Made by a program: the position numbers and the translations under genes | Notes under the pieces: generated by a model | Seen by the model: only the letters and a program-made list of their open reading frames with translations | Told to the model about the DNA's origin: nothing | Databases searched by the model: none | Part shown: piece after piece, positions 297 to 42,056 of the stretch | Layout of the letters: every line of letters starts with the position of its first letter | How positions within the stretch are numbered: position 1 is the first letter of the stretch | NCBI GenBank assembly: GCA_963665815.1 | Contig: OY762463.1 | Coordinates: 2,336,001 to 2,400,000, forward strand | Source of the DNA: Candidatus Cloacimonadales bacterium | Lineage (GTDB): Bacteria; Cloacimonadota; Cloacimonadia; Cloacimonadales; JAIOQZ01 | Direction: 5' to 3' | DNA length: 64,000 bases

Positions 297-336
297 GAAT
301 TCCTCCAAGTTTTTTATTATTGTTTATGTTTTTGAT

Positions 337-1092: not shown

Positions 1093-1107
1093 ATATTCTC
1101 CGACAAA

Positions 1108-2431: not shown

Positions 2432-2501
2432 TGTTTATCTATCCTGTATATTCGTGTTATCTCATTCTATGTTCTTTCTAAATCCATAATATATAATGAA
2501 G

Positions 2502-3074
2502 TTATCTATTTTGTTTGTCAAACTTTATTAATATTGCAGGATCAATTTTTTCACCTGACTCTATTATCTCAAAGTGAAGATGAGGATCTGTACTCTTTCC
2601 AGTATTGCCTACAAGCGCAATTACGTCATCAATATACACATACTCTTTTAACTTTACAAACACTTTTGACGCATGTGCATATTTTGTTTTATATCCGTTC
2701 AAGTGATCAATTACAAGATAATTTCCATAAATTTCATCATAACCTTTATCAACAACAACCCCCACTGCAGATGGAACTATCTTTGTTCCTGTAACCGCAG
2801 CTAAATCAATTCCTTTATGTATATCGGAGAATCGCTGACTGACGACATACTTCCCGTAAACAGGAACCTGACGGGGAATACTGTCACTATAGTCATTATA
2901 ACGTTTCTTACCTGATCCGGATTTATTCGATACTGTACTTACCTTAAAATTTTCCAACTCTCCTGTAAGTTGAACAATCTCTGCTTTCTGTTTGCCGACA
3001 AGGCTGAACTGAAAATAGACTGCCCCAATCAGTAATACAATAATTAAGAGAAGTCCTGCCAGTATAACTTTCAT
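2502..3074 (-). CDS. M23 family metallopeptidase with N-terminal membrane anchor
   Basis: HKGIDL, YAH and GNTGKSTDPHLHFEI motifs. Confidence 0.92.
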   Translation of the reverse strand: MKVILAGLLLIIVLLIGAVYFQFSLVGKQKAEIVQLTGELENFKVSTVSNKSGSGKKRYNDYSDSIPRQVPVYGKYVVSQRFSDIHKGIDLAAVTGTKIVPSAVGVVVDKGYDEIYGNYLVIDHLNGYKTKYAHASKVFVKLKEYVYIDDVIALVGNTGKSTDPHLHFEIIESGEKIDPAILIKFDKQNR

Positions 3075-3075
3075 A

Positions 3076-3924
3076 TCACTTCAAAAGTTTTTTCAGAAGC
3101 TGTATTCTCTCGTCTTCATTCTTATAGAAGAATGATATTTTGCCTTTGCTGTTCTTGTCAGCAATTTTTACTTTGAATCCAAAGTTCTTCTTAAGTTGAA
3201 GTTCCATCTCACCTAGAACAACTTTTTTCCCTTCAGGTACTTTAGGAAGCTCAGTTTTGTCAGGAGATGCCAGAAATTCTTTTGCTGCTTTCTCGGTTTT
3301 CCTTACAGACAGCTCATTCTTGATAATAAAATCTGAAAATTCAACCTGATTCTCTTCCGGTAACGTAAGTATTGCTCTGGCATGACCTGATGATAGTTTC
3401 TGCCCTCTGACAAGCTCCCTGACCTCAGGATGTAGCTTTAAAAGCCTGAGAGAATTAGTTACAGTCGCTCTGTCTTTACCAATGATTTCCGATATCTGGG
3501 CATGAGTTAAAGAGAATTCCTCATGAAGCTGCATATATGCCTCTGCCTCATCCATAGAGTTCAAATTCTCTCGCTGTATGTTCTCAATAATTGCAAATTG
3601 CAAAAGTTGTTTCTTAGATACACTTCTTATTATCACAGGAATCTCACTGAAGCCTGCCAGCTTGGAAGCTTCCAGTCTTCGTTCTCCCGCAATCAGTTCA
3701 TATTGTGAATTCTCACACTTAGAAACGATTATCGGCTGAATAAGCCCGTTTTCTTTTAATGACTGTGCCAGTTCCTGAAGTTTTACCTGATCGAAAACTT
3801 TTCTCGGCTGATATCTGTTGGGTCTTATTTTACTTACATCAATTGTTGTAATCCCGGTTGTTCTGTCCGTGGATTCCGGCCCCGATTTTATCAGAGCATC
3901 AAGTCCTCTTCCTAATCTACTCAT
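3076..3924 (-). CDS. parB: Chromosome partitioning protein ParB/Spo0J
   Basis: LGRGLDAL N-terminus, QPRKVF, IAGERR, ENIQRENL and HTH. Confidence 0.97.
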   Translation of the reverse strand: MSRLGRGLDALIKSGPESTDRTTGITTIDVSKIRPNRYQPRKVFDQVKLQELAQSLKENGLIQPIIVSKCENSQYELIAGERRLEASKLAGFSEIPVIIRSVSKKQLLQFAIIENIQRENLNSMDEAEAYMQLHEEFSLTHAQISEIIGKDRATVTNSLRLLKLHPEVRELVRGQKLSSGHARAILTLPEENQVEFSDFIIKNELSVRKTEKAAKEFLASPDKTELPKVPEGKKVVLGEMELQLKKNFGFKVKIADKNSKGKISFFYKNEDERIQLLKKLLK

Positions 3925-4679
3925 CTTTTTATCACTTCCGCCGCAAATTGCAAATAATTGCGCGCGCCTTTGGATGTTATATCATAATGAAAAATTGATT
4001 TACCAAAACTCGGTGCTTCACTGAGCTTTACATTTCTATGTATAATTGTGTTAAATACTTTTTCCCTGAAATAGCGTCTTACTTCTTTTGCTACCTGATT
4101 TGAGAGATTTAGTCTTTTATCATACATTGTAAGCAGAACTCCCAGAATATTCAGGTCAGGATTAAGATTTTTCTGAATAAGATTTACAGTATTTAAGAGC
4201 TGACTTACTCCCTCAAGAGCAAAGTACTCACACTGAATAGGTATAAGTACATCTGTACACGCAGTAAGAGCATTAACCGTAAGTAACCCGAGAGAAGGAG
4301 GACAATCAATGATAACATAATCATATTTGTCATTAATGCTCTCTAATGCTTTTTTTAGCTTATGTTCCCTTGAGAATTCTTTTACAAGTTCTATTTCTGC
4401 ACCTGTAAGGTCTATATTGCTTGGCGCTAAGTCAAGATGTTCTATATATGAAGGAACAATAACGTCCTCAATGTTAACTTTTTTAACCAGTGCATCATAA
4501 ATATGTATCTTCAGGTTAGAAGTATCTACACCCAACCCGCTAGATGCATTACCCTGAGGATCAAAATCAATCAACAGGGTTCGTTTTTCATGAATTCCCA
4601 GAGCTGCTGCAAGATTGACTGAGGTAGTAGTTTTACCAACTCCCCCCTTTTGATTCACAACAGTTATGATTTTTTTCAT
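3921..4679 (-). CDS. parA: Chromosome partitioning ATPase ParA/Soj
   Basis: Deviant Walker A NQKGGVGKTT, DPQGN, DCPPSLG, EAPSFG. Confidence 0.97.
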   Translation of the reverse strand: MKKIITVVNQKGGVGKTTTSVNLAAALGIHEKRTLLIDFDPQGNASSGLGVDTSNLKIHIYDALVKKVNIEDVIVPSYIEHLDLAPSNIDLTGAEIELVKEFSREHKLKKALESINDKYDYVIIDCPPSLGLLTVNALTACTDVLIPIQCEYFALEGVSQLLNTVNLIQKNLNPDLNILGVLLTMYDKRLNLSNQVAKEVRRYFREKVFNTIIHRNVKLSEAPSFGKSIFHYDITSKGARNYLQFAAEVIKR

Positions 4680-4680
4680 T

Positions 4681-5292
4681 CTATTTAAATACCTTTATAA
4701 GTTTTCTGGTTCCGATAGCCGGATGGCTGACATCAATAATCTTTTTCTTCTTGAAAATGTCAGTATCATCATGATTCTCTGATTTATATAAAATCATGCA
4801 ACCATTGTTTTTAAGTATCCTCATAAGTACTTTTTTGAACTGTGGAAGGATTCTTACGGATCGACATACAATAACATCAAAAAGACCTTCCCATTCATCA
4901 ACAGGACACTCTTCTAATCTGTACGAAACAGGAAAACATGAATCTAAGTCAAGATTTTTGACAATTTTTTTCAGGCATTCTATCTTCTTCTTTCTGGAAT
5001 CAAGCAATACAACTTCAGAGTCGGGATACATAATACTCAATGGTATACCCGGAAGCCCACCGCCAGTACCGAAATCAAGAATAGTTTTTCCTGCAAAATT
5101 ATAATGATCTACAGAGAGCAGAGAATCCATTATATGAATTGTCCATATTTTATCAGGATTTGTTTTACGTGAAACAAGGTTAACCTTCTGATTTTCCTCA
5201 AGCAGTAATTCATGATATCTCTCTATGAGAGAATATTTTCGTTCGTCAGAAAATCTTTCTGAATAGAATTCAGTAAATACTTTTTTAGACAT
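4681..5292 (-). CDS. rsmG: 16S rRNA m7G527 methyltransferase RsmG (GidB)
   Basis: NLVSR, HIMDSL and DFGTGGGLPGIP motifs; synteny with parAB. Confidence 0.93.
   Translation of the reverse strand: MSKKVFTEFYSERFSDERKYSLIERYHELLLEENQKVNLVSRKTNPDKIWTIHIMDSLLSVDHYNFAGKTILDFGTGGGLPGIPLSIMYPDSEVVLLDSRKKKIECLKKIVKNLDLDSCFPVSYRLEECPVDEWEGLFDVIVCRSVRILPQFKKVLMRILKNNGCMILYKSENHDDTDIFKKKKIIDVSHPAIGTRKLIKVFK
5161..5176. promoter_or_regulatory. parS centromere-like site
   Basis: TGTTTTACGTGAAACA, one mismatch from the palindrome TGTTTCACGTGAAACA, about 0.5 kb from parA. Confidence 0.85.
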
Positions 5293-5613
5293 TTTTACTC
5301 CTGAAAATATTTCAGAAAACTACAGTTGAAATGTCAATCAGAAAATATACCAGAAATTTTAATATCTTCTACTATGCTTTACAAGTCAACAATCCAAAAA
5401 GGATATTTTATATTTCCCTTACATGTTAATTAATTCATTTTTTTTGATTAGATAATTGAAATTATACCCTATACTCTGTTAGCCTTATTCGGCAATTTTC
5501 AACATCAGTAAATATAAGTGAAATCTGGGGCACTGAATAATACACTGTCAGTTCAAATATTTTCCATGAAATATTTGACTTAAAAATAAATATACTATCT
5601 TATTGGTAAAGAG

Positions 5614-8600
5614 GTGACTATGAGATACATTAATATTTTTCTAATTTTTATTTTCTGTTTTCAGCTGCATGCAGTTGTACAGGAATCCGCATCATTAAAA
5701 GACTTTCTATATGGTGAAACCGATCAAACCGCTTATGACAACTTTCAAAGTCATATTATTGAAGGAGTTGATCATAACATTAACGACCACGCTCCTTACG
5801 ATCCGCATACCGATGGATTCGGAACATTCACTGTCCCAACGGATACCGATACTCTGAACTGGGCACAACTTATTCAGTTTTTTCTGGATGAAAACCTGCA
5901 ATCTGCCGATTCATTGATTCAGGAATTAAATCTACCTTATGAAATTGTTGAATTCAATGATACCGATGTAAACAGAAACTACATTATGTTAAGAGAGCTT
6001 GTTGATACAACATATGTTGATACTAACAGCACAGATGGTTATATTGAACGTGGCAGCTTTAACAAAGGCTGGGGACTATACATATATAACCCAAACAGTT
6101 TTTATGATAACATAATTACTACTCCTCACCCAAGCGATGACTTTATCACAATACCGGTTTCCTGCTATGCATTCCAGGAACTCAATGCAAAATACTGGCT
6201 CATAAGCAATGTCAGCCGTGAAGCCGCTCACAGTGGAACAAACTTTACAAATGGTACATCACTATCTGATCCAACCAGAAATTCCTGCCACCCATACAAT
6301 ACTACTTACAAAGCAATTGCCAATAAAGTAAGACAAGAGACAGGCGAAAGAGAATTCTGTGTACAAATTCACTCGTATGACTGGGATAATACCGGTCCCC
6401 ATAGACCTATAGAACTGTCAATGGGACCTTTTAATGATAAAACATCCCTTCCAACCAGAGACTTCAGCAGTCAGCATCGAGATCTGGTTAATTTTACAGA
6501 TGAGATAGTTGTTCCTGCAAATTCGGTGGGAATTCATGACCAGATCAGAGTTGAAGACTACTATTGCATAAATAATGGAACAGAACCAATCTATTTCTAT
6601 GGAGAAAATCAGGACTATGCAATAGATAACCAGATATGGCTTGAAGGGTATCATTATAATGTTCAGATGAGATATACTAATGACAATTATAATGATTATG
6701 AAGTATTCGACCCGTTTTTCCATATTGAAATGCACGAACTTCCTTATGTATATGCGACTAATGATTCGACCTACAGATGGTTTTATGAACAGACCGGTCC
6801 GTCATTTAAATCTAGATTCGATAAAATGTTCGTTTTTTATGCCCCGTGGGTGGATGCCTTAGATGAAGCTATGAGATACTATAACAGGAGAAATGACTAT
6901 CAGACACCTGATGCTCCCCAACTGACCCAGCTGTCAACTCTGCCTGAAATCTCCTGGACACGTGCTGATTGTTATGATTTTGCAACATATCGTATCTTCT
7001 ACTCAGACAGCACAATAACAGATCCGCCGGACAGTACGGTAAGCTATATTGACAGGAACAGCATGGAAACTTTAGCCCAGCCTACATTCAACAGTTATAC
7101 TGATGAAGTAGTTTCCCTTATAGGTAAATATGTCAGAGTTCAAACTGTAGACCAGAACGGGCATGAATCTGACCTGTCCAATGAAATCATTGTAGTATCA
7201 AGCAATGTAAATATCAGTCAATTCAGTATTACTCCCGGAGACAATGGTGTAACAGTATCATGGACAACAACAAGCCAGACAAACAACTCAGGATTTCTGT
7301 TGAAACGAACAGAATATCCATTTGATCAGACTCAGACTCTTTTCAGCTATGTTTCTGATCTGGCAATGCTGGGATACAATCAGGCAGGAACACGAAATTA
7401 TTCAGTAACTGACAATTCTGTTGTAGATGGCGGAATTTATAAGTATTCATTGTACTCTCACAATAGTCAGTTGAATGCTGATGTTCCCCTGTATCTGAAT
7501 CAAGAGCTAAATATTGTACCTTATTATAATCTGGTATTAGATCGAAACGGAGTAACGGAAGAAAGTACATTCGGAATGAATTTCTTTGCTTCGGATGGTT
7601 ACTCAGATGATTTTGATGAGACTACATCCCTGTACAACAGGTCTCAATATGTAGTCTTTACAAGTCCTCCTATGCCAAGATCTTATGAAACAATGATTCA
7701 TGAAGCATTCGATCCAAATGAAGTATGGAAAGAGTGGCCTGTTAAAATAAAGAATCAGTCAGGAGAAAACGGTGAAGTATACATGGATCCTTTACCTGCA
7801 TCAATGCATCAGGGAGGAAGGTTATTCATGACAGACGGTACAAACTGTATCAATCTTCTAACTGATACTTTAGCAGTGCCTAACGGCATCAGTGGGGACT
7901 ATTACACAATGTACTGGGGTAATATTCAGCCAAATATCAGTCAGAACATGGATATTACTAAATACTACCATGCTGGCGATACACTCACATTGAACTGGAG
8001 TTCTGACAGAGAATATATGATTAAAAAACATTATCTGACAGTTATGGACCATTCCGGCACACAAACGCTGGTAGATTCAATCTATTCTACTACTAACAGT
8101 TATGAGATTATTCCGGATGGAACATACTCCGACTCTGTTTTCTTCACTCTTCATACAATACTGTACGACGATGATGAAATTTCAATTGATTTCCCAGTTA
8201 TTCATGTTTATAATAATACACAGAGCTACGCTCTTGAAGAAGGTATTCAGCTACTGAATGTACACAACCTGAACTCAAATATTAATATAAATACAATGCT
8301 GAGCGATCTTGTTCATTTTTACAGTTATGATGACAGTTCTTTCACCCAGCATATTACAATGACCTCTGGGACCTATGCAGTAGAATCTGATCAGACCTAT
8401 CAATTTTCTGAGCAAACTCCTGCATACCCGAATTCCACAAACTCTGTTTTGCTTTCACAAGGATGGAACCTGATAGGATCTCCATTCCCTCATGATTATC
8501 CATTATCTGCAGTCAAAATCATTCAGAATAATCAGGAGACAACTTATAATCAGGCTGTATTAGATGGAATCATTGAGGGTTATGGGCTTGACAATTCCGG

Positions 8601-30792: not shown

Positions 30793-33700
30793 CTATTTGT
30801 TTATTCTTTTAACTTCATGTTTCTTCAGCTCAGGTTTTTCCTGAACATTTTGAATATCGCTTCGAGTACCGGAGTTATTCACTGCTACAATGCTATAGAA
30901 TTTTTTCTCATCTCCATTCAGTGGAGCATTCCAGATTATCAAATTACCATGATTCGTGATTGTTCCGGTACCTGTAATATTCTGAGTTACATTATCCGGA
31001 CTGTCACCTGCATAAACGTAATATCCGTCAGCTCCGTTATCTGCCCATAAAATATTCACAGAATTGTCCTGAACGGCTATGCCGATAACTTGCGGAGAAT
31101 CAGGAGTAATAATGATTTGCACCTGAGCAGTATTGGATGGACCGGATTCACCTTCAGTATGTACAGCAGTCACATAATATGTGTATGTACCTTCTGTTAA
31201 ACTCTGATCTGTGTAAGTTGTAATGTTATCAACATACTGAATCAGATTGCTGTTTCTGTAAATATTGTATCCTGAAAGAATTCTGTCTGACTGATCTGGA
31301 GCAGGAACCGGATTATCTGCAATTGTCAGATTGTTTAATGGACGAGGAATATCAGCTATAGGGCTATAAGTAATTCTGGATGAAGAGCCCTGCATTGTTG
31401 TATGCCCAATAATATTCCAGTTATAATCCAGAGTCGGATATTCGGTGTGAAGGCTGATCCAGTTTCCTCCCCAGTATACCAGGTCTCCTTTATAATCTAC
31501 AGCCGGACCACTGTCCCTGCCGGCAGGATAATCTCCAGTAGTATTAACTCTGTATCCAATCCAAAGCTCCTGATTATCAGAAATTGTTACAGGTGAATTT
31601 AGCGTAAATCTGTTCCATGTATTATATGTTGCTGGAACGACCTGTTGGTCAACAATCATTGTCCCCGCATCAGGGGTTCCTGAAACAGTTCCACCAACCC
31701 AAACTCTAATATAGTATTCACTACCGTCGTAACGAGGGAAGAAGGAAACTTCATTAAGAGTTGCTCCATTGTGCTGGGCAAGATCAGCCGTTGTGAATCT
31801 GATTGCAACATCAAAGTCCGCTGCAGCACCGCCACTGGCTCCAATTCCTCCACTACTGACACCATTATCATACCTCATTTCTGATTCTGTAATATTTGGG
31901 GCATCCCAGTTAAGCACAACATCAGTATCGCCTGAAACTGTTGCAGTTAAATTTTGCGGTTCAGCCAGACCTCTACGTACAACCAGACTTAACGGAATAG
32001 TAATCAGTCTATGATTGGGGTCATTCGTTGTTATATTTATTGATGCTTCATAAGTGCCATAATCCATTCCGGATGAATCAAATGTCATGTTCACAACACT
32101 GTTTCCGGCTGGAGAGATAGTTCCTGCCAAATTACTCATGCTAAGCCAGTCAACTCCAGGAGGATCAATTAATATCGATTTGCTTCCGGTCAGGTAAGAA
32201 GAATTATACACTATTGGAAGACCATCTAAACCATCAGATGATTCTATCCCGACAGTACAGCTTGACGGGTCTGATGTAAACGATTCGTAGTTAAATTGTA
32301 TCTTACCGTTATGATAGAATACAACCTGCCATGTTCCGCTGCTGGAAGATGGGCTGTAGAAATGCCAGTCTTCAAACTGAACAACAAACGAATCGGTATT
32401 CTGTTTTGTATAAACGCTTCCGCCATTAACACCATTCATGTCATCCCAGAACGGAACAACGATGTTATTAGGATCGGCAGTGTTAGGTATATCACTGTTA
32501 GTCCAGGCATTAACATCTACACCTGCTTGTTCAAAACTTATAATTCCGTTTGAGTTTATGTATATACTATTATACGTGTTTCCATAAAAATTAAAGTCAA
32601 AACCAAGACTGAATGGTCCGGCATAGCCTTCATCAAGAGCATCATAGCTGCCTGTTGCAACCCAGTTTGTTACTTCAGTACCTGTAGTTTGAATATCGTT
32701 CCAGGAGTAAGAAGGTCCTCCCGCTTCAGATTCATCTTTCCAGGTGTATCCATAAGTATCCGGTCCACCGGCTGCTCTTGTTACAGTTCTGGTATGACTT
32801 ACAGGCATTCCGGCAAAACTACCCTGTCTGCTATCTGACTGACCTTTGGGTATTATTGTACTGTCAAATATTGGAGTATAAGCAGATCTTACTGCAACAT
32901 TATCATCCACGACAATTGAATAATCGAGATCAGCATTCCCTGTGTTATATATTGTTAATGTATTTTGAGATGTATTATCAGGTTCAAGGCTTTCCAGGAA
33001 ATAGTCAGGGCTGACAGAAGCTATGGGAGAAATAGTAGTTACTGAAGCACCACTGATAATAAGAGAAAAAGCCTGAGGATTAGTGAGAAAACCTTTATGA
33101 GTCACTCTGAGAGTATATTGTCCACTTGAAGGATTAGGAATATAAACAACTTCCACATTATCAATATCATTATCAGAATTATTGGTTGCAGCAGCTGTCG
33201 GGTTTTGACCATCCAGCTTCCATGGATAATGAGTAGATGTCCCCTGAATTCTCAAGTCAAGATCATTTACAAGCATTTTATCTGTTGGATCAAGTGAAGC
33301 TGATACAGGAGTTCCCGGAATATCAGCCCAGCAGATAGTTGCCTTGAGAGGTTCAGTTCCGTCTGAATTTAAAATAACTTCGTAAGTCTCTCCATTGGCA
33401 AGAGATTGCTCAAATATTCTACCTGATATATTATCTGTTGAAATTAAATCAGCAGCAGTTCTTATATTAACCAGTCCCCAACCATATTTATAGTCAGGAC
33501 CATCATATGATCCTGCTTCATCGGCAGTATGAATTACAAGTCCTTTTAAAGTAGAAGCTTTCATGTATGTATTGTGCAGATCTTCATATAGTTCCTGCAG
33601 CAGCCCAAGTGCTCCCGCAACAGAAGGTGTAGACATGGATGTACCGGAAATAGTAAGATAGTCAGAATCACCTGTGTTATCACATGATGTAAGATTAGAT

Positions 33701-34692
33701 CCATTTGCTACAACATCAGGTTTGATTCTACCATCATCTGCCGGTCCCCATGAGCTGAAAGATGTAGCAGAGACATCAGAAGGTTGAGAATATCCACCAA
33801 TTATATCATAAACAGCACCAACTGTAAGGACATTTTTTGCTACACCTCGCTGACCGATACAATCGTAACCGGTTCCCTGATTCCCATCCTGAGGATAAGA
33901 ACCGTCTCCGGTATCGTTTCTGTCATTTCCCGATGACTTACATATAAGAAAATCAGGAGCATTATAAGCAATCTGATCCCATCCCTGAGATTCACTGTCA
34001 TAAAAACCAAAAAGATAGTCTTCTGTAGAGCTGATAGAGGAGTTTCCATACCAGCTCCATGTGCTTGTTCCCTGATCATATCGCCAGCCTCGAATATATC
34101 CGTAGGAATGGTTAGAAATGATCGCACCGTTTGCTCCTTCGGAAGCAAGTTCACTATCGTCATTATTCCAGTCAAATGCTCTGAGATCAGCATTATAAGA
34201 CATTCCTCTTGCATCGGGATTTAATCCTGTGGCGATCATAGTCCCTGCAACATGAGTTGAGTGATAATGAGTTGATGAAGGGTTGTCCACCTGAACTACT
34301 CTACCGCCAAATTCAATATGAGATGTGAGAACGCCGCCTCCATCCCATTCATTCAGAGTAATACCGGAACCAGTAAGGCTGTATCCGGCTCCACCACCGG
34401 GATAAACAAGATTTGCAGAGATAGTTTCTGCCGCATCTGCATTGTTAGTTGTATAGTATTGAGGTTTACCGTATTTATCAATATACTGAATATCAATAAC
34501 TCCACCCTTGCCGTCTTCTTTTCTGACAGGCAGGTTGTTTTTTATGGCAAACTCAATTGCATCTTTTTTCTGTTTATCTCGTTTTTGTCTGAACTCTTTT
34601 GCAAGTTTATTCAATTCACTTACATTCGGAACTGCAAATAAACTTATACATATTAATGCCAAAATAACCAAAATAACTAATCTCTTACTCAT
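30793..34692 (-). CDS. Secreted S8 (subtilisin-like) serine protease with C-terminal Ig/FN3-like domains
   Basis: Triad WDGG, HSTHVAGT, SGTSMS; FSSWGPADDGRIKPD; signal peptide from MSKR (34692). Confidence 0.92.
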   Translation of the reverse strand: MSKRLVILVILALICISLFAVPNVSELNKLAKEFRQKRDKQKKDAIEFAIKNNLPVRKEDGKGGVIDIQYIDKYGKPQYYTTNNADAAETISANLVYPGGGAGYSLTGSGITLNEWDGGGVLTSHIEFGGRVVQVDNPSSTHYHSTHVAGTMIATGLNPDARGMSYNADLRAFDWNNDDSELASEGANGAIISNHSYGYIRGWRYDQGTSTWSWYGNSSISSTEDYLFGFYDSESQGWDQIAYNAPDFLICKSSGNDRNDTGDGSYPQDGNQGTGYDCIGQRGVAKNVLTVGAVYDIIGGYSQPSDVSATSFSSWGPADDGRIKPDVVANGSNLTSCDNTGDSDYLTISGTSMSTPSVAGALGLLQELYEDLHNTYMKASTLKGLVIHTADEAGSYDGPDYKYGWGLVNIRTAADLISTDNISGRIFEQSLANGETYEVILNSDGTEPLKATICWADIPGTPVSASLDPTDKMLVNDLDLRIQGTSTHYPWKLDGQNPTAAATNNSDNDIDNVEVVYIPNPSSGQYTLRVTHKGFLTNPQAFSLIISGASVTTISPIASVSPDYFLESLEPDNTSQNTLTIYNTGNADLDYSIVVDDNVAVRSAYTPIFDSTIIPKGQSDSRQGSFAGMPVSHTRTVTRAAGGPDTYGYTWKDESEAGGPSYSWNDIQTTGTEVTNWVATGSYDALDEGYAGPFSLGFDFNFYGNTYNSIYINSNGIISFEQAGVDVNAWTNSDIPNTADPNNIVVPFWDDMNGVNGGSVYTKQNTDSFVVQFEDWHFYSPSSSSGTWQVVFYHNGKIQFNYESFTSDPSSCTVGIESSDGLDGLPIVYNSSYLTGSKSILIDPPGVDWLSMSNLAGTISPAGNSVVNMTFDSSGMDYGTYEASINITTNDPNHRLITIPLSLVVRRGLAEPQNLTATVSGDTDVVLNWDAPNITESEMRYDNGVSSGGIGASGGAAADFDVAIRFTTADLAQHNGATLNEVSFFPRYDGSEYYIRVWVGGTVSGTPDAGTMIVDQQVVPATYNTWNRFTLNSPVTISDNQELWIGYRVNTTGDYPAGRDSGPAVDYKGDLVYWGGNWISLHTEYPTLDYNWNIIGHTTMQGSSSRITYSPIADIPRPLNNLTIADNPVPAPDQSDRILSGYNIYRNSNLIQYVDNITTYTDQSLTEGTYTYYVTAVHTEGESGPSNTAQVQIIITPDSPQVIGIAVQDNSVNILWADNGADGYYVYAGDSPDNVTQNITGTGTITNHGNLIIWNAPLNGDEKKFYSIVAVNNSGTRSDIQNVQEKPELKKHEVKRINK

Positions 34693-35016
34693 ATTCTTTC
34701 CTTCTATGCTTTTAAAAATTATTTCCAATTCAAATTGAACAATAATTATAATATAGTGTCAATTTCTTTAGTCAGGAAATTGTGAATCAGATTTTTATCA
34801 GCTATTGGTTGTCTTTTGCTGAGGGGCATTGACGTTGTTTCTTTTGACCTTCTGTCTCATAAACTCACATCTCCCCGTCGTTGTTTAGACAGGAGCACAT
34901 CTTCATTTAATGCATCCTGTTGATTACATTTTCATTTTTTGGTTGACTGTATAACAAGACGATTTACTTTTTCTAAAGTACATTTAATTATTGAAAATTA
35001 TGAAATGGAGTTATAA

Positions 35017-35928
35017 ATGAAAAAACTGTTCCTGAAACAGGTAATGATGAATCGTGTACTATATGCACTGATCCCAATTTCATTGATGGCTGTTTATCTG
35101 TATGGCTTCCGAGTTCTGGGGGTAATTGCTGTGTCTAATCTTGCAGCATTCCTGACAGAATATCTCTTTGCAAGACAGAAAAAAGTCCCGAAAGTGTCAA
35201 TGGCAGTGTTTGTCACCGGTTCTCTGGTTGCTCTTACGTTACCTCCTACAATTCCATTCTGGATTGCTGCGGTAGGTTCTGCTTTCGGAGTAATGTTTGG
35301 AAAAATGGTTTTTGGCGGATTTGGTATGAATGTGTTCAATCCGGCTATTGTTGGTAGAACATTCATCTACATATCATTCCCTAAGTATATGACAGTACAA
35401 TGGCTGAAACCTTTTGAAGGATTCCCCGGCGGATTCCTGCACTGGATGCAGCCAGATAATATTACTGCAGCTTCACCAATTATTACATTCCGTGATACAG
35501 GTGTAATGGAGTCATTCACTAAGATATCACTGGGAACAATCCCGGGGTGTATAGGTGAGACTTCAGCAGTACTGATTCTTGCTGCTGCAATATATCTTAT
35601 TGTTACAAAAACAGCTAAGTGGCAGCCTATGGTTGGCTGTCTGATAGGTTTTGCTGTCAGTACACTCATATTCTATGGAAAAAGCCCTTTGTTCTTCATG
35701 CTGAGCGGTGGATTCATGTTCGGTACAGTATTCATGGTGACTGACCCTGTTTCAATGCCTAAAAATAAAAAAGCTATCTGGATCTACGGAATCCTGGTTG
35801 GATTCTTAACCGTGTTTATTCGCAGATTCTCACTTTTTGCAGAAGGTTTCATGTTCGCCTTATTACTGGCAAATGTAACCATGCCGATTGTTGAGTACGC
35901 AATGAGCTACAAGCCGAAGAAGAAGTAA
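35017..35928 (+). CDS. nqrB: NqrB/RnfD family membrane flavoprotein
   Basis: KMVFGGFGMNVFNPAIVGR, PGCIGETS, FMVTDPVS, EGFMFALL; FMN motif DNITAAS. Confidence 0.85.
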   Translation: MKKLFLKQVMMNRVLYALIPISLMAVYLYGFRVLGVIAVSNLAAFLTEYLFARQKKVPKVSMAVFVTGSLVALTLPPTIPFWIAAVGSAFGVMFGKMVFGGFGMNVFNPAIVGRTFIYISFPKYMTVQWLKPFEGFPGGFLHWMQPDNITAASPIITFRDTGVMESFTKISLGTIPGCIGETSAVLILAAAIYLIVTKTAKWQPMVGCLIGFAVSTLIFYGKSPLFFMLSGGFMFGTVFMVTDPVSMPKNKKAIWIYGILVGFLTVFIRRFSLFAEGFMFALLLANVTMPIVEYAMSYKPKKK

Positions 35929-35938
35929 GGAGATATTC

Positions 35939-36562
35939 GTGGCAGAAAAAACACCTTTCACAGAAACCAGAATATATCCGATCATCTTTATGATGATAGT
36001 GACAATTGTATTTGTCGGACTTCTGGCTTTCTTTTATCATTCATCCAAAGAACGTATTGAAAGTAACGAACAGCTTGCGTTCCAGAAAAAGATTCTGGCT
36101 TTGTTCAGCCTTTCTGCGAAGAATCCTTCCGAAGCATTCGGAAAGTATATAAAAACCGAAACAAAGGATGACCTGACATTTTACAAAGCAGAAAAAGACG
36201 GAGCTATGCTCGGGTATGCTTTTGTAATTAACGGCCCGGGACTCTGGGGATCAATCAACGCTGTTGCTGCTTTCACGACAGATTTGAAGCAGATAATAAA
36301 GTTTGATATTCTCAATCAGAATGAAACACCGGGACTGGGCGGCAGAATTACCGAAGACCAGTTCAAAGATCAATTCAATAATAAAGTACTCGTAAAAGAT
36401 AATAAACTAATAGACTTCAAACTTATTGCTGAAGAAGAAACACCGAAAGCAAACGAAATCTGTCAGATTACCGGAGCAACGTTTTCTTCTCAGTCTGTAA
36501 CCAAGCTTATATACAAAGAAATGATACAAATCAGTAAGAAGATGGGATTTTCTTATGACTAA
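35939..36562 (+). CDS. nqrC: NqrC/RnfG FMN-binding subunit
   Basis: GPGLWGSI (NqrC-like), ETPGLGG and ITGAT flavinylation motif; GTG start after AAGGAG. Confidence 0.88.
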   Translation: MAEKTPFTETRIYPIIFMMIVTIVFVGLLAFFYHSSKERIESNEQLAFQKKILALFSLSAKNPSEAFGKYIKTETKDDLTFYKAEKDGAMLGYAFVINGPGLWGSINAVAAFTTDLKQIIKFDILNQNETPGLGGRITEDQFKDQFNNKVLVKDNKLIDFKLIAEEETPKANEICQITGATFSSQSVTKLIYKEMIQISKKMGFSYD

Positions 36563-37154
36563 AAAAGAAATATTCATTACGTCGGCATTTACAGAGAACT
36601 CTGTCTGGAAACAGATTCTGGGGATTTGCTCTGCACTCGCTGTAACTAACTTGATGATGAACAGTCTGGTAATGGGATTAGGAGTAATATTCACCCTGGC
36701 TCTCTCAGGTTTCACAATTTCACTGATCAGAGACTTTATACCAAGACGTGTTCGTATGATGGCACAAACACTGATAATTGCGTCCTACGTGATTATTGTT
36801 GATATAACACTTAAGGCTTATCTACCGGAAATCAGTAAGAATCTCGGACCATATGTCGGTCTGATTATTACAAACTGTATTATTATGGGTAGAGCAGAAG
36901 CCTTTGCAGGTAAAAACAGCCCGATAGATTCCATGATCGACGGAATAGGTGCAGGTTTCGGATATACATTCGTTCTGCTGCTTATTGCTTTTGTCAGAGA
37001 AATCTTCGGTTTCGGTTCAATCTTCAACATTCAGATACTCGGTGACTGGTGGACAAAATGGTCTATTATGGTTATGGCTCCAAGTGCATTCTTTATACTT
37101 GCTGTTATAATCTGGATCATTAACGGACCTCTGGCAGCTAAGAAAGGGAAATAG
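36555..37154 (+). CDS. nqrD: NqrD/RnfE subunit
   Basis: LGICSALAVT and VGLIITNCIIMGRAEAF with both Fe-ligand cysteines. Confidence 0.9.
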   Translation: MTKKEIFITSAFTENSVWKQILGICSALAVTNLMMNSLVMGLGVIFTLALSGFTISLIRDFIPRRVRMMAQTLIIASYVIIVDITLKAYLPEISKNLGPYVGLIITNCIIMGRAEAFAGKNSPIDSMIDGIGAGFGYTFVLLLIAFVREIFGFGSIFNIQILGDWWTKWSIMVMAPSAFFILAVIIWIINGPLAAKKGK

Positions 37155-37163
37155 GAGATAATT

Positions 37164-37754
37164 ATGGTAGATGTATCATCAATAGTAATATTCTTCGCAG
37201 CAATTTTCACCAGTAATATCCTGCTGACGAATTTTCTCGGAATGTGTTCTTTCCTTTCAGTATCTAAAGAAGTAGAATCATCATTCGGACTTGGTATGGC
37301 AGTTGTGTTTGTCATGACAGTTACATCAGCACTGAATTATGTTGTATACCATTATATACTCGTACCTTTCGATATTGTGTACCTGCAGTACATAGTATTC
37401 ATTATCGTGATCGCCGCTTTTGTACAGCTTACAGAGATCGTGATAGAACGATTCTCACCGGTTCTGTATTATTCTCTCGGAATATTCTTACCTCTGATTA
37501 CCGTGAACTGTGCGATATTCGGGGTAGCTTTATTCATGATTATCCGAAAATACAGCTTTATTCAGGCAGTAGCTTACGGAGCAGGTGGCGGAATCGGTTG
37601 GATGCTGGCAATACTTATGCTTGCAGGTATCAGAAAGAAACTTAAAGACAAGTTCATACCAACAGGTCTGCAGGGAGCAGGAATAAGTCTTATAATTACC
37701 GGAATCATGGCTCTGGCGTTCATCGGGTTCTCCGGTGTTGCGGTTATTCAGTAG
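37164..37754 (+). CDS. nqrE: NqrE/RnfA subunit
   Basis: FLGMCSFL and GIFLPLITVNCAIFG motifs. Confidence 0.9.
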   Translation: MVDVSSIVIFFAAIFTSNILLTNFLGMCSFLSVSKEVESSFGLGMAVVFVMTVTSALNYVVYHYILVPFDIVYLQYIVFIIVIAAFVQLTEIVIERFSPVLYYSLGIFLPLITVNCAIFGVALFMIIRKYSFIQAVAYGAGGGIGWMLAILMLAGIRKKLKDKFIPTGLQGAGISLIITGIMALAFIGFSGVAVIQ

Positions 37755-37767
37755 GGAGGACAAAAAA

Positions 37768-38865
37768 ATGAACGTTATCATACTGAATATACTTATTGCA
37801 ACAGGTATCAGTACTTTTCTGGCAATACTTCTCGTTATAGCCGAAATGCTGTTTGCCAACTACGGTGATTGTGAGATTGAGATAAACGGTAAGAAGAAAG
37901 TTACTGTTAAAGGCGGAGGAACACTGCTTGGTGCTCTTGCAGATAACAAGATATTTGTACCTTCTGCCTGTGGTGGAAGAGGCTCGTGCGGGTTCTGTAA
38001 ATGTAAGGTGGAATCCGGCGGAGGACCTTTACTCCCAACTGAAAAACCGTTTCTGACTGCTGCAGAACAAAAAGACAGTATCAGACTATCCTGTCAGGTT
38101 AAAGTCAAAGAAGACATCAAAATAAACATACCTGAAGAGATTTTCAATATCCAGAAGTTCACTGCTGTTGTAGAAAAGATAGAAGACTATACATATGACA
38201 TTAAAGGTGTAACATTCAAGCTTATTGAGCCAAAGGAAATCAACTTCAAAGCAGGACAATATGTTCAGCTTCACACTAAGAAATACGGCAAAGTAAAACA
38301 GGTGGTTTCCAGAGCATACTCAATATCCAGCTCACCGGATTTAAAAGACAGACTTCAGCTTATTATAAGACGAGTACCTGACGGAATCTGTACAACCTAC
38401 GTGCATGATTTCCTTAAGGAAGGTGATGAAGTGAACTTTACAGGACCATACGGTGATTTCTTTATCAGAGATACAGATGCAGAGATTATTTATATTGCTG
38501 GCGGATCCGGAAAAGCTCCTATCAAATCTATGATGGACTATTTTGCGAATCATCACAGTGACAGAAGAATGGTGTATTTCTTTGGTGCTAGAACAGAACA
38601 CGATCTTTATCTGACCGACTACTTTAACGAGTTCGAGAAGAAGCTGAACTTCACTTATGTACCGGTACTCTCTCAATGTGAGAACAAAGACTGCTGGAAT
38701 GGCAGAATGGGCTATATTCCGGAACATTTCGATGATTTCCTGACTAATCCGAAGAACTCGGAAGCGTATTTATGCGGATCCCCCGGTATGATAGCTGCAG
38801 TTGAGAAAGCTCTCATAAAATCCGGTGTCCCAAAAGATAATATATACTACGACAGTTTTGCTTAA
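37768..38865 (+). CDS. nqrF: NqrF-like NADH-oxidising subunit (TM anchor, 2Fe-2S, FAD, NAD)
   Basis: SACGGRGSCGFC...RLSCQV, RAYS, GPYG, AGGSG, YLCG; ATG 37768 follows GGGAGG. Confidence 0.88.
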   Translation: MNVIILNILIATGISTFLAILLVIAEMLFANYGDCEIEINGKKKVTVKGGGTLLGALADNKIFVPSACGGRGSCGFCKCKVESGGGPLLPTEKPFLTAAEQKDSIRLSCQVKVKEDIKINIPEEIFNIQKFTAVVEKIEDYTYDIKGVTFKLIEPKEINFKAGQYVQLHTKKYGKVKQVVSRAYSISSSPDLKDRLQLIIRRVPDGICTTYVHDFLKEGDEVNFTGPYGDFFIRDTDAEIIYIAGGSGKAPIKSMMDYFANHHSDRRMVYFFGARTEHDLYLTDYFNEFEKKLNFTYVPVLSQCENKDCWNGRMGYIPEHFDDFLTNPKNSEAYLCGSPGMIAAVEKALIKSGVPKDNIYYDSFA

Positions 38866-38877
38866 AGGAGGATTACA

Positions 38878-39330
38878 ATGAAACTTACTCCAAAACAGAT
38901 TAAAATCCAGGAGAGAATGGCAGAAGGAAAAGTAACTATAGACGGATTCCTCGGGAATGATCCTCGACCATACCCTGAGATTATAGAAGATGATTTAAGA
39001 AAGCTGTCAGCTCTGGACAAAACTCAGGAAGAAATAGCTGACAGGCTCCAGTATTTCACGGATAAAGCATTTGAAAGCTATGATGGACCAATTGTTATTG
39101 ATAATATTTATAAGGTAGAATACAAGAGCTACAGGGGGAAAATGATTAGTCCATTCCTGGAAGTCGGGAGATTCTCTAAAGGTGAGATAACTCTGGAAAA
39201 CCTGGAAAATAAGGTGAAAATACATTGGACTCCATTGTCAATCCATATGATTCGAGTGCATGGTTTCTTTGAAGGCAAAGGTTCAGGACATAGAATAGAA
39301 CCCGATCAAGTCGTAAAAGCTTTGTTTTAG
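38878..39330 (+). CDS. Hypothetical protein co-transcribed with the nqr-like operon
   Basis: 150-aa ORF with AGGAGG RBS, 12 bp after nqrF. Confidence 0.75.
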   Translation: MKLTPKQIKIQERMAEGKVTIDGFLGNDPRPYPEIIEDDLRKLSALDKTQEEIADRLQYFTDKAFESYDGPIVIDNIYKVEYKSYRGKMISPFLEVGRFSKGEITLENLENKVKIHWTPLSIHMIRVHGFFEGKGSGHRIEPDQVVKALF

Positions 39331-39342
39331 GGGGAGGATTAT

Positions 39343-39855
39343 ATGAAATCGCTTAAGGAACAAAAAGCTATAGCTGCGGTATGCGGTTTATATTGTGGAG
39401 CATGTTCAGCCTATATTGCAACAAAGGAAGATCCGGCAAGACTGACTCAACTGGCAGGCATGTTCGGTTGCAGTGAAGAAGATGTAAAATGCCATGGCTG
39501 TCGTGGAGATATAAGAGGCTCATACTGTTCTCAGTGCCGTATGGTGCAATGTGCCGAGGAACGCGGAATAGATTTTTGCTCGCAATGCAGTGAATACCCC
39601 TGCGATGTGATTAAGGAATTTCAGGCGCAGGCACCACACAGAAATGAGTTGTGGGAAGATCTGGCAAGGATCAGAGAAGTCGGCTATGAAAAATGGCTGG
39701 AAGAAGTTAAAGAGAAGTACACCTGTAGTGATTGCGGAACTGTTAACTCTGCGTATGATCTTGTCTGCAGGAAATGCGGAGCTGATCCATCCTCGGAATA
39801 CACAAAAAAGCACAAAGACAGTATTATCTCAGCTTTGACGATGTTTGGGAAGTAG
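39343..39855 (+). CDS. Cys-rich DUF3795-like protein with C-terminal zinc ribbon
   Basis: CGLYCGAC, CHGCR, C..C..EYPC and C-terminal CSDC...CRKC. Confidence 0.8.
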   Translation: MKSLKEQKAIAAVCGLYCGACSAYIATKEDPARLTQLAGMFGCSEEDVKCHGCRGDIRGSYCSQCRMVQCAEERGIDFCSQCSEYPCDVIKEFQAQAPHRNELWEDLARIREVGYEKWLEEVKEKYTCSDCGTVNSAYDLVCRKCGADPSSEYTKKHKDSIISALTMFGK

Positions 39856-39872
39856 AAAATACTGAGGGTGCG

Positions 39873-42056
39873 ATGAAAATTAAAACAGGATTATGGTTAC
39901 TTCTGATAGTAATTATCTTGAATACGGGTTGCAAGCCTGATTCACCCAAACTTAAAGAGGATAGGCATTTTGAGATTCAGGTTAATGATTATAGCATTTT
40001 GAATCATTCAAAGTATAAGGATAAAAAGAAATTTGATAATATCATTGAATTAAAAGAATCTCCCTACTCAGTGAAACATGGAAATAAAAATGATCATAAT
40101 GGTACGTTGAACTCTTACTCTAAATTATCTATTTCCCTTGATGGAAAAATATATCTTCTTTCAAGTTATGGACATCTATATAAAACAAGTGGAATTGACT
40201 CAGTCTGGACTTCTCTTAATTCCCTCCCTCGACAAAATCCCAATAGTGATCAAAGATATAACCAAACTTATTGTACTGATATAACGTTTTGTACTGATAA
40301 TATTGCTCTGGTGACCGGAAGATTAGCTGTAAATGAAGGGTTTGGTATATACCGAACTGAAGATAATTGTAAATCCTGGGAATATTTGGAGTTGTCAGGA
40401 GAAGAAGAGCTCTTTGCAATACATATTACGGAGAACCGTAGAATCTGGTTGGGTGGTTCTTCCGGTAAGATATACTATTCTGATGATCTAGGTGAAACAT
40501 TTGATATAATAGAAAACAAAACAATAGCTGATCAGTGGGTAATGAGTATCTATATGACAGATAAATCAAATGGTGTTCTTGCAACTACAGAAAACTTTTA
40601 CTCAACTACTGACAACTGGAAAACAGCAGAATTAATATCTCCAAGACCTTACGGTCAAAGAAAAAATGAACTGAAAACGAATTTACTATATCCAGGTAAC
40701 TATAAAATTGCTGTTTGGAAAGATTATGTTATTGCAAGAACAGCAAAGGGAATCTTAAGCAAAACAATCAATACAATAACTGGTGATTGTACATGGGAAG
40801 AATTCCCTGAAAAGATAGAGGATTTTAGTATTTGTGATAATTCTGGAAAGTTGTACGGGATATGTAGAGACGAAGGCTTATTCAGGTTTCCAGATCAGAT
40901 TTATATAGTCGAATATTCATCTCCAACTGAATGCAATAGCATCAAGAAAATAGTTGATTCAGAATACATCAAAGATATTGAAGTTTGTAGTGATGAGTTA
41001 TATATTCTGGATAATTCAGGTTTAATGGAAATTACTTCCGAAAAAAAAATACCTTCTCAGATGATTCTTAAAGGTAAAACTATTGATCCATATAATAGAA
41101 ATATTCGAATATCAGATGCCGGCATAAAGTATGGATCTGACCACAATAATCTGTATTGTTTCGATGAAGCTGTAAATGACTGGTACAGAGTATGTGCAAC
41201 AACCTTTAATATCAATAGCTTCAAAATCCTCTCAGACAAGCAGATTGCACTTTCTGATGGCAGTAATTATTATCTTTATTCTCCGGATAAGGATTATCTA
41301 GAGGACTACACCTACGAAAAACCTTTAACAGATTTCCTGAAATTTCCGGTAACATCTATGAAAATTAAAGGTGAATATCATGGTTGCTGGGATGAAATTA
41401 TATCTTACATTGAATTCAAGAGAGAAGATGGAAAACTTATTTCTGTGAAATACACGAATAATAAACATAAAAGCGATTCAATAATTGAATTCAAACACCA
41501 GATAGAAACAGAAACACTGAATAATGTTTTACACTCAATCAATAAGGAACCAGACAATATCTCAGAGCCCAGAGATTTCAATTTCACACAAGAGCATATT
41601 GATTGTTATCTGAAATTTGTTAGAGAAAATGATTATATGTGTATTCCAGAAGACTTCTATTGTAAAGTCCCTTCAATACTTGATACGGTTAACTCGGATC
41701 TTTTTAAACATATTTTGTCATACTTTAGAGAATCACCTGTCAATAATCATCCACTTAATCTAAAAATAGTAATTTTTAATCAGGTAGATGACTCAATTGA
41801 GATAAAAGCTGCAATCAATGATTCAGATATAGCCTGGGGCTTCCCCTGGTCTATTGAGTACAATAGCATGAGGTTTCTGAATCTAGACATTGAACTTTCC
41901 AGATTTATTAATAGCTGTTTGCCCGATGATTTTCCAAGTAAACAATTTGCTGAATTCAATTACCTTTTTAAAGAAATAGGGGATTACTTTAATTGGGTAA
42001 ATGGTGTAAGTGAAAAATATTTCAAAAAATTGAAAGATGAGGAAGCTAACAGGTAA
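39873..42056 (+). CDS. Putative lipoprotein with BNR/Asp-box (YCF48-like) beta-propeller
   Basis: Lipobox NTGC; YRTEDNCKSW, YSDDLGETF and STTDNWKT Asp-box repeats. Confidence 0.65.
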   Translation: MKIKTGLWLLLIVIILNTGCKPDSPKLKEDRHFEIQVNDYSILNHSKYKDKKKFDNIIELKESPYSVKHGNKNDHNGTLNSYSKLSISLDGKIYLLSSYGHLYKTSGIDSVWTSLNSLPRQNPNSDQRYNQTYCTDITFCTDNIALVTGRLAVNEGFGIYRTEDNCKSWEYLELSGEEELFAIHITENRRIWLGGSSGKIYYSDDLGETFDIIENKTIADQWVMSIYMTDKSNGVLATTENFYSTTDNWKTAELISPRPYGQRKNELKTNLLYPGNYKIAVWKDYVIARTAKGILSKTINTITGDCTWEEFPEKIEDFSICDNSGKLYGICRDEGLFRFPDQIYIVEYSSPTECNSIKKIVDSEYIKDIEVCSDELYILDNSGLMEITSEKKIPSQMILKGKTIDPYNRNIRISDAGIKYGSDHNNLYCFDEAVNDWYRVCATTFNINSFKILSDKQIALSDGSNYYLYSPDKDYLEDYTYEKPLTDFLKFPVTSMKIKGEYHGCWDEIISYIEFKREDGKLISVKYTNNKHKSDSIIEFKHQIETETLNNVLHSINKEPDNISEPRDFNFTQEHIDCYLKFVRENDYMCIPEDFYCKVPSILDTVNSDLFKHILSYFRESPVNNHPLNLKIVIFNQVDDSIEIKAAINDSDIAWGFPWSIEYNSMRFLNLDIELSRFINSCLPDDFPSKQFAEFNYLFKEIGDYFNWVNGVSEKYFKKLKDEEANR

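Follow-up and report, generated by a model that had tools for sequence, protein, structure and literature searches.

The stretch of DNA analysed here, referred to as the window, is 64,000 nucleotides long and corresponds to G000:C1:2336001-2400000 of a Candidatus Cloacimonadales bacterium, the genome of which is a single 3.96-Mb contig (98.66% complete). From position 35017 it carries seven tightly packed open reading frames (ORFs) on the plus strand, the first five of which (35017-38865) encode subunits B, C, D, E and F of a membrane complex related to both Rnf and NQR, the NADH:quinone reductase. No gene for NqrA or RnfC lies alongside; the next gene encodes a protein of 150 residues, called X150 here, and the seventh a DUF3795 protein. 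The six genes from B to X150 are as follows.

35017..35928, plus strand: B subunit, NqrB/RnfD homologue, 303 residues (PF03116, 1.8e-84)
35939..36562, plus strand: C subunit, NqrC/RnfG homologue, 207 residues, GTG start (PF04205 FMN_bind, 4.6e-12)
36555..37154, plus strand: D subunit, NqrD/RnfE homologue, 199 residues (PF02508, 1.7e-58)
37164..37754, plus strand: E subunit, NqrE/RnfA homologue, 196 residues (PF02508, 6.1e-55)
37768..38865, plus strand: F subunit, NqrF-type reductase, 365 residues (Fer2, FAD_binding_6 and NAD_binding_1)
38878..39330, plus strand: X150, the conserved sixth gene, 150 residues, 12 bp 3' of F

The spacing within this set ranges from -8 to 13 bp. The start of F is placed at the ATG at 37768, an alternative GTG at 37735 giving a protein of 376 residues. 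An original prediction from the sequence had described this operon as an NQR-like complex with no NqrA or RnfC, with a B subunit of 303 residues lacking the long NqrB N-terminal extension and with a 150-residue gene 12 bp after F. These features are borne out, that of B by alignments, N-terminal lengths and model scores, and the motifs that it quoted (GLWG in C, ICSALAV in D, MCSFL and ITVNC in E) are found in the translations.

The arrangement B-C-D-E-F-X150 is a conserved and widespread family, of which the window encodes one member, with B-C-D-E-F and then an X150 homologue directly after F. A search of a species-genome collection with an alignment of F returned 569 relatives, and the best 80 of these are termed class loci in what follows. 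At least 12 named phyla are represented: Spirochaetota (30), Bacillota (12), Planctomycetota (10) and Cloacimonadota (8), with the remainder from Lentisphaerota, Kiritimatiellota, Thermodesulfobacteriota, Verrucomicrobiota, Fibrobacterota, Fidelibacterota, WOR-3, TA06 and others. The carriers include isolates of Sphaerochaeta and Pleomorphochaeta. The order B-C-D-E-F is constant across all 80, in no case is a gene for RnfC or NqrA found 5' of B and X150 is detected by a hidden Markov model (HMM) in 74. The 150-residue gene, treated in the original prediction as a mere neighbour, is thus a conserved partner of the pump genes. At three of the other six loci (L042, L055 and L078) the contig ends within about 150 bp after F, so the presence of X150 there cannot be judged. 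Among sampled Cloacimonadota genomes X150 occurs in 108 of 151, and it lies directly 3' of the F homologue in all 11 other Cloacimonadota loci that were fetched. Clustering of 1162 flanking ORFs did not identify any family present in more than 10 of the 80 loci beyond the six genes, and the two families found at 10 loci are antisense shadow ORFs.

Three individual loci show further features. The deltaproteobacterial locus L096 (9385-17101), which has no X150, continues with genes for a GltD/NfnB-like Fe-S flavoprotein, a pyridine-nucleotide-disulphide oxidoreductase, 2-oxoacid:ferredoxin oxidoreductase subunits and aconitase. In the WOR-3 locus L045 (9114-10367) F is followed by a 418-residue ORF in which a stretch weakly resembling X150 (46.6 bits) is joined to FlgD_ig and type IX secretion C-terminal sorting domains; this mixture would be odd in a cytoplasmic partner, and the ORF may be fused or a misread frame. 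The Neomarinimicrobiota genome G154 (L103/L109) has a canonical nqrA-(326-residue ORF)-nqrBCDEF operon plus an NqrA-less six-gene cluster, and therefore the two systems can coexist.

Subfamily scoring with NCBIfam places the subunit set of the window between Rnf and NQR. B exceeds the cut-off of the rnfD model TIGR01946 (210.1 bits against 207) and falls short of those of the nqrB models NF003756 (200 bits against 414) and TIGR01937 (174 against 350). Its alignment with Vibrio cholerae NqrB starts only near residue 139 of 415, and that with RnfD chains from the PDB spans their full length. In an alignment of B proteins with uncurated start codons, the median number of residues before the conserved core is 29 in 29 related B proteins, compared with about 71 in ten canonical NqrB and about 36 in 20 RnfD proteins. 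Both the alignment with PDB chains and the N-terminal lengths indicate that B has no NqrB-type N-terminal extension. D narrowly passes the NqrD model NF006777 (235.3 bits against 235), while E lies below the cut-off for both nqrE (224.9 bits; cut-off 247.55) and rnfA (218.9 bits). The best NCBIfam matches of C are rnfG models, every one of them under its cut-off, and F falls just below the cut-off of the nqrF model TIGR01941 (292.2 bits against 295), the next match being BenC (184 bits).

C consists of an N-terminal hydrophobic stretch and a flavin mononucleotide (FMN)-binding domain with the motif ITGAT, and [ST]G[AS][TS] recurs in 74 of 74 class C subunits. The corresponding motif of B is D-N-I-T-A-A-S-P, the class form being D-x-x-[ST]-x-A-[TS]-P, and is retained in all 30 class proteins examined; serine occupies the acceptor position in this window, in two other class members and in one RnfD. 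These are the motifs that we take to define covalent FMN attachment in B and C. Their retention and the presence of two ApbE genes in the genome predict that both subunits are flavinylated. D and E each have two cysteines, in ILGICSALAV and ITNCIIMG of D and in FLGMCSFLSV and ITVNCAIFG of E. F begins with a hydrophobic helix, followed by a 2Fe-2S ferredoxin domain (C-x5-C-x2-C ... C) and a flavin adenine dinucleotide (FAD)/NAD(P)H module, and lacks two inserts (∼31 and ∼20 residues) in the FAD domain that are common to all sampled canonical NqrF proteins. The D and E cysteines are taken to be ligands of an intramembrane cluster, in line with a 2025 review (PMC12174285).

X150 has neither a hydrophobic stretch nor a signal peptide and is therefore expected to be cytoplasmic. 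No family in Pfam or NCBIfam matches it, and none of 27 family members gives a meaningful Pfam match. The AlphaFold2 model is confident (predicted local distance difference test score 94.1, predicted template-modelling score 0.88). However, a Foldseek search of this fold against the PDB gave no match at E <= 0.001, the best VIA-align match among 48,161 chains is not convincing (Z = 3.6) and a profile search of PDB sequences produced nothing meaningful. The ESM Atlas returned only 'hypothetical protein' clusters, with DUF7919 annotated on 13% of the members of one of them. In a profile search, 1724 cluster representatives were matched at E <= 0.001. Residues Asp28, Arg30, Asp39, Gly135 and Arg139 are nearly invariant, and the positions conserved across phyla include Gly87, Pro92, Lys101, His128, Phe130, Gly133 and Pro142. 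A predicted complex of B with X150 (score 0.00, mark 0.32, controls not run) counts neither way on binding.

A scan of 17 longer X150-family proteins found rubredoxin domains in three, a rubrerythrin domain in one, a nitroreductase domain in one and a partial AhpC/TSA domain in one; two others have weak DUF matches and nine have no other domain. In addition, genome G156 contains an uninterrupted X150-rubredoxin ORF of 213 residues directly after F (L231, 4883-6642; PF00301, 7e-21). The operon is split in this genome, with B-C-D-E on G156:C219 (L236/L237) and no F in the 1.5 kb after E. Tandem X150 domains also occur: three and two copies are visible in the sequences of P0052 (885 residues) and P0133 (385 residues), respectively, and three matched stretches in P0157 (2506 residues), none of the three proteins having a Pfam family. 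In P0052 the N-terminus is hydrophobic and there are long linkers of low complexity. A solitary X150 homologue is encoded on the minus strand at 8453-8908 of L229 (G003:C1:1069000-1087000), in a genome without an F homologue; a PASTA-domain gene with rsmB and ruvAC lies on one side of it and glycosyltransferase genes lie on the other.

The same protein families recur next to the operon. Beyond the six genes, the commonest neighbours of class loci are desulfoferrodoxin, rubrerythrin and peroxiredoxin. HMMs built from these three neighbours, together with the rubredoxin of this genome as a query, were used to scan the flanks of the 80 class loci (1.07 Mb), of 80 Rnf loci (0.93 Mb) and of 29 NQR loci (0.41 Mb). 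Of the 80 class loci, 19 are flanked by at least one rubredoxin, rubrerythrin, desulfoferrodoxin or peroxiredoxin gene, compared with 0 of 80 Rnf loci and 0 of 29 NQR loci, a contrast that is overstated because three of the HMMs derive from the class loci, the controls come largely from other taxa and related genomes are not independent. By family, the class flanks contain rubredoxin at 14, desulfoferrodoxin at 12, rubrerythrin at nine and eight (two models) and peroxiredoxin at seven. At least seven named phyla contribute to these 19 loci, which belong to Cloacimonadota, Spirochaetota, Lentisphaerota, Kiritimatiellota, WOR-3, Bacillota, Planctomycetota and Delongbacteria. A rubredoxin gene lies directly 3' of X150 in L053, L066, L080 and L086, directly 5' of B in L055 and L060, and divergent from B in L048.

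Elsewhere in the genome of the window, a search of the whole contig with PF05896 (NQRA_N) gave no match. The original prediction had called for a separate rnf operon to be looked for, and a complete rnfCDGEAB operon is indeed present at G000:C1:1987968-1993011, ∼380 kb from the window operon. It contains the sole rnfC of the genome, as well as rnfB and the one further RnfD-family gene (at 1.99 Mb). There is no MenA/UbiA-type quinone prenyltransferase: the single UbiA-family gene (G000:C1:1591469-1593204; L219, 542-2277) scores 30 bits on ubiA and has its best scores on geranylgeranylglycerol-phosphate (GGGP) transferase models. It directly follows a farnesyl/geranylgeranyl-diphosphate synthase gene, and this pairing with an archaeal-like GGGP transferase-type gene hints at ether-lipid rather than quinone synthesis. 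The best match to MenG/UbiE is 61 bits against a cut-off of 158 (other menaquinone-pathway genes were not searched). A quinone is thus unlikely in this organism, since it has no NqrA, no MenA/UbiA-type prenyltransferase and no MenG/UbiE above its cut-off, and B lacks the extension. An nqrA gene and a quinone pathway elsewhere in the genome, which the original prediction had named, together with standard NADH:quinone reductase behaviour, as evidence against it, were not detected above cut-off. Its view that the complex differs from both standard NQR and Rnf and does not use the usual acceptor is supported.

The phylogenetic position of the six-gene class was examined with trees of D and E rooted on the D/E paralogy. 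The canonical comparison set comprised 29 nqrABCDEF loci, found using the NqrA of the genome with both systems as bait, and 80 rnf loci. The careful tree has 86 rows (20 class, eight NQR and 14 Rnf systems and one hybrid, described below, each with D and E). These rows were hand-picked for phylum spread, and L048, L086, L147 and L198 were dropped later owing to long branches or over-long ORFs. Support in the two halves of the tree, given as ultrafast bootstrap/Shimodaira-Hasegawa-like approximate likelihood-ratio test (SH-aLRT), is as follows.

Hybrid, NQR and six-gene class together: 100/99 in the D half, 100/99 in the E half
NQR and six-gene class: 95/72 in the D half, 97/86 in the E half
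NQR alone: 100/100 in the D half, 100/99 in the E half
Six-gene class alone: 92/93 in the D half, 88/90 in the E half

The D and E subunits of the six-gene class therefore group with NQR, outside the Rnf rows, and quick D and E trees of 124 and 118 rows agree in topology; NQR is represented in the trees by 8-10 canonical operons from Bacteroidota, Lentisphaerota and Fidelibacterota and by no proteobacterial NQR. The B proteins of each of the three classes are monophyletic (SH-aLRT 97 for the six-gene class and 100 for each of the others). In an approximately unbiased (AU) test, a tree in which the hybrid D was forced together with the six-gene-class D was not rejected (p-AU 0.395, log-likelihood difference 1.75), so that the order among hybrid, NQR and six-gene class is favoured but unsettled, while the clade itself is solid. 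The favoured arrangement from these alignments would make canonical NQR and the six-gene class sister groups, with Rnf outside their common clade. Since RnfC and NqrA are homologues, the ancestor of NQR and the six-gene class must have had such a subunit; the six-gene class would then have lost it rather than predating it. On this reading it is a large family sister to canonical NQR and not the Rnf-to-NQR intermediate proposed in the original prediction.

Such a step is approached more closely by a different gene cluster. Locus L230 (G121:C143:8000-20000), at about 55-8562, encodes in order ApbE, an FMN_bind protein, an RnfC-like protein, B, C, D, E, a short F and a UbiA-family protein. The RnfC-like protein (515 residues) has an RnfC_N domain, a Nuo51-type FMN domain and a 4Fe-4S dicluster; the locus has an F homologue and neither RnfB nor X150. 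The same order recurs in metagenome loci L240-L243, in which the RnfC-like protein shows 95, 59, 56 and 49% identity; one of these contigs breaks off within C, and in another F is matched only in part. This hybrid is rare (one of 151 Cloacimonadota genomes) and branches at the base of the clade of NQR and the NqrA-less systems. It is the hybrid, and not the six-gene class, that looks like an Rnf-to-NQR step. The hybrid carries an NADH-type site at both ends.

The gene neighbourhoods and fusions suggest, at roughly even odds, that the complex of the window is an ion-pumping NADH:rubredoxin oxidoreductase. Electrons from NADH would enter through the FAD and 2Fe-2S centres of F and, by the known NQR/RNF pathway, pass via the intramembrane cluster of D/E to the FMN of C on the outer side and return by way of the B flavins to the cytoplasmic face, this transfer driving the export of Na+ (or H+). 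X150 would sit at the cytoplasmic face, where Rnf has RnfC and NQR has NqrA and its quinone, and as an output or rubredoxin-docking subunit could hand single electrons to rubredoxin. Rubredoxin would in turn supply rubrerythrin, superoxide reductase and similar enzymes that remove oxygen or peroxide. The wider proposal that strict anaerobes from many phyla possess a third type of Rnf/NQR pump, a Na+-pumping NADH:rubredoxin oxidoreductase in which X150, with its new fold, replaces the RnfC/NqrA exit, is somewhat more tentative and is put forward at a little less than even chances.

Several observations, in addition to the overstated neighbour contrast, weigh against assigning rubredoxin as the acceptor. 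No rubredoxin or oxygen-defence gene adjoins the operon in this window, and the genome's own set, one rubredoxin and several rubrerythrin genes at G000:C1:2.611-2.614 Mb, lies ∼237 kb downstream, outside the window; 61 of the 80 class loci likewise have no such neighbour in their flanks. Neither an invariant cluster of cysteines nor a recognized cofactor motif occurs in X150, and a mostly conserved cysteine before Pro92 is serine in this window. X150 is absent from L065, L091 and L096 despite sequence downstream of F. The AhpC/TSA fusion appears incomplete and could reflect a chimeric gene model. Finally, six Cloacimonadota genomes, five of them in one genus, have X150 without F (E <= 1e-60). 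The sixth (G148) is an 82%-complete draft in which X150 lies at a contig start. In the complete 2.2-Mb genome G003 the X150 homologue (45% identity) is solitary among unrelated genes. The retention of X150 without F implies that a role outside the pump exists or is possible.

The last point fits a rival explanation in which X150 is an independent soluble enzyme or carrier, for instance a metal-binding terminal reductase of an oxidant that takes electrons from the pump or merely shares its regulation, and in which the fused rubredoxin is the electron-input domain of X150, as in rubrerythrin or desulfoferrodoxin. Apart from the six genomes without F, one of them complete, the multi-copy proteins P0052, P0133 and P0157 are consistent with such a role, the polar, invariant or near-invariant residues Asp28, Arg30, Asp39, Lys101, His123, His128 and Arg139 could form an active or metal site, and rubredoxin, rubrerythrin and nitroreductase are typical fusion partners of terminal detoxifying enzymes. 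The position after F in 74 of 80 loci is better suited to a subunit, though, no known catalytic fold or motif is present and His123 and the cysteine vary across phyla, so that this explanation appears unlikely while deserving some weight. If X150 were instead a maturation or assembly factor, with the true acceptor not encoded nearby, its slot would be familiar: NqrM or ApbE is encoded after nqrF in Vibrio. The lack of a cofactor motif and the ability to exist without the pump would also be accounted for. The fusions with rubredoxin, rubrerythrin and nitroreductase would be unexpected for such a factor and the ApbE genes are separate, which makes this alternative improbable.

Three further alternatives concern the route of the electrons. 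The quinone site of NQR is in NqrB, and the complex might simply be an ordinary NADH:quinone (menaquinone) reductase that works without NqrA. The class is sister to NQR, and the carrier G154, with its canonical nqrA operon, may for that reason make quinone; the account of NQR in the 2025 review (PMC12174285) has electrons going straight to ubiquinone in the membrane. Against this, the genome of the window has no MenA/UbiA-type prenyltransferase or MenG/UbiE above cut-off and B lacks the extension. Many of the carriers, namely spirochaetes, clostridia and Thermotogae, are also presumably free of quinone, and the chance that the complex is such a reductase is judged slightly lower than that of an assembly role for X150. 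An exit on the outer side, from the FMN of C to an extracytoplasmic acceptor with B serving only as an ion path or flavin relay, would agree with the loss of the cytoplasmic A/C subunit, which removes the known exit, and with the partial NQR/RNF-like, one-way flavinylated extracytosolic systems treated by Meheust et al. (2021; PMC8238504, relevant sections). Yet the B flavinylation motif is kept in 30 of 30 proteins, X150 has no signal peptide or hydrophobic stretch and no conserved exported partner is found in the neighbourhood; an outer exit is accordingly rated marginally lower again. Least probable, and barely to be expected, is the suggestion in the original prediction that RnfC docks in trans to give a Na+-coupled NAD(P)H transhydrogenase-like enzyme. 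A combination of RnfC with an NqrF-type subunit is viable in principle, as the hybrid exists elsewhere, but the sole rnfC here belongs to the complete rnf operon ∼380 kb away, all 80 class loci lack an RnfC or NqrA gene 5' of B, the B clade stands apart from RnfD and the conserved partner is X150.

The proposed NADH:rubredoxin oxidoreductase can be compared with several known systems. It shares with NQR (NqrABCDEF; structures 7xk3/8a1t from Vibrio cholerae, and Segatella bryantii) homologous B-F subunits in the same gene order, an F subunit with the domain set of NqrF (membrane helix, 2Fe-2S, FAD/NADH), the flavinylation motifs of B and C and the cysteine pairs of D and E. Unlike NQR, the system of the window has X150 and has no NqrA, no B extension of ∼70 residues and no F inserts; its genome lacks a quinone prenyltransferase and the six-gene class falls outside the sampled canonical NQR clade. 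With Rnf (Acetobacterium woodii, 9eri; Clostridium tetanomorphum, 7zc6; the organism's own operon) it has in common the homologous membrane core D/G/E/A and a B subunit that is of RnfD length and passes the rnfD model. The window operon differs in having neither RnfC nor RnfB, its input being an NqrF-type NADH reductase, and D, E and B of the class lie outside the Rnf groups in the trees. The RnfC-B-C-D-E-F hybrid is similar in its short NqrF-type F and homologous B-E subunits and belongs to the same clade (100/99), whereas it keeps the 515-residue RnfC-like subunit and has no X150. The soluble NADH:rubredoxin oxidoreductases of clostridia and Pyrococcus use NAD(P)H to reduce rubredoxin, which then serves oxygen-defence enzymes. 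This is the same overall reaction as that proposed here, carried out by a soluble flavoprotein that is unrelated to Nqr/Rnf and does not conserve energy, whereas the complex of the window is membrane-bound and built on an ion-pump core.

NqrA-less nqrBCDEF clusters have been noted previously: a 2014 paper (PMC4148951) records them in Pseudothermotoga thermarum and P. lettingae, and one from 2018 (PMC5924567) does so for Clostridium ultunense and Alkaliphilus metalliredigens. In the passages concerned both papers call the other reaction partner unknown. With the same five genes and no nqrA, these clusters appear to belong to the six-gene family. The sections of the two papers on these clusters make no mention of a sixth gene or of a link to rubredoxin; in the C. 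ultunense data a rubrerythrin gene (CUESP_0386) lies seven locus tags after the cluster CUESP_0375-0379, a proximity to which the authors do not refer there. According to the corresponding part of the 2025 review (PMC12174285), NQR arose from a duplicated rnf operon in which RnfB was replaced by an FNR-type reductase; none of its passages on NqrF considered here describes a form without subunit A. Meheust et al. define NQR by the presence of NqrF in the relevant section of PMC8238504, and NqrA-less clusters may therefore be counted as NQR there. No paper linking NqrA-less Nqr to rubredoxin or describing the sixth gene was found in a search that left subscription journals outside its range; NqrA-less clusters may also figure in the tables of gene clusters in PMC8238504 and in Table S1 of PMC4014512. 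NqrA-less nqrBCDEF has thus been in print since 2014.

The genes flanking the operon in the window are as follows.

30793-34728, minus strand: S8 peptidase, a 1311-residue subtilase with fibronectin/Ig-like repeats, divergent from the operon
39343..39855, plus strand: DUF3795 cysteine-rich protein, 170 residues (PF12675, 8.5e-17; Zn_ribbon_3, 8.6e-4)
39873-42056: 727-residue protein with a weak sortilin/BNR-like match, downstream of the operon

The position of the S8 peptidase gene on the minus strand means that the operon begins at B, in agreement with the original prediction of a divergent gene upstream. A promoter and terminator scan of 34600-40100 gave consensus matches near chance (21 and 5, compared with shuffled expectations of 14.9 and 3.7). 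The DUF3795 gene starts 12 bp 3' of X150 on the same strand, is probably co-transcribed with the operon in this window and encodes a C-terminal CxxC...CxxC zinc ribbon. It adjoins X150 in none of 11 other Cloacimonadota loci, a same-genus genome included, and was found in one of the 80 class loci, ∼6 kb distant; this absence from related loci rules it out as a conserved seventh subunit. In this window the DUF3795 gene occupies the slot that is held by rubredoxin in some other phyla.

The sixth gene, its fusion and adjacency to rubredoxin and the oxygen-defence neighbours make the question of the electron acceptor of NqrA-less Nqr complexes concretely testable. The phylogeny in combination with the RnfC-plus-NqrF hybrid offers what look like living examples of the steps from Rnf to NQR. 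If the proposed NADH:rubredoxin oxidoreductase activity is correct, the Rnf/NQR family would gain a third functional type, and many fermenters, syntrophs and spirochaetes would have an oxygen defence that is coupled to energy conservation. The removal of oxygen, superoxide and peroxide via rubredoxin would then itself conserve energy and would amount to a quinone-free and cytochrome-free respiration on oxygen species.

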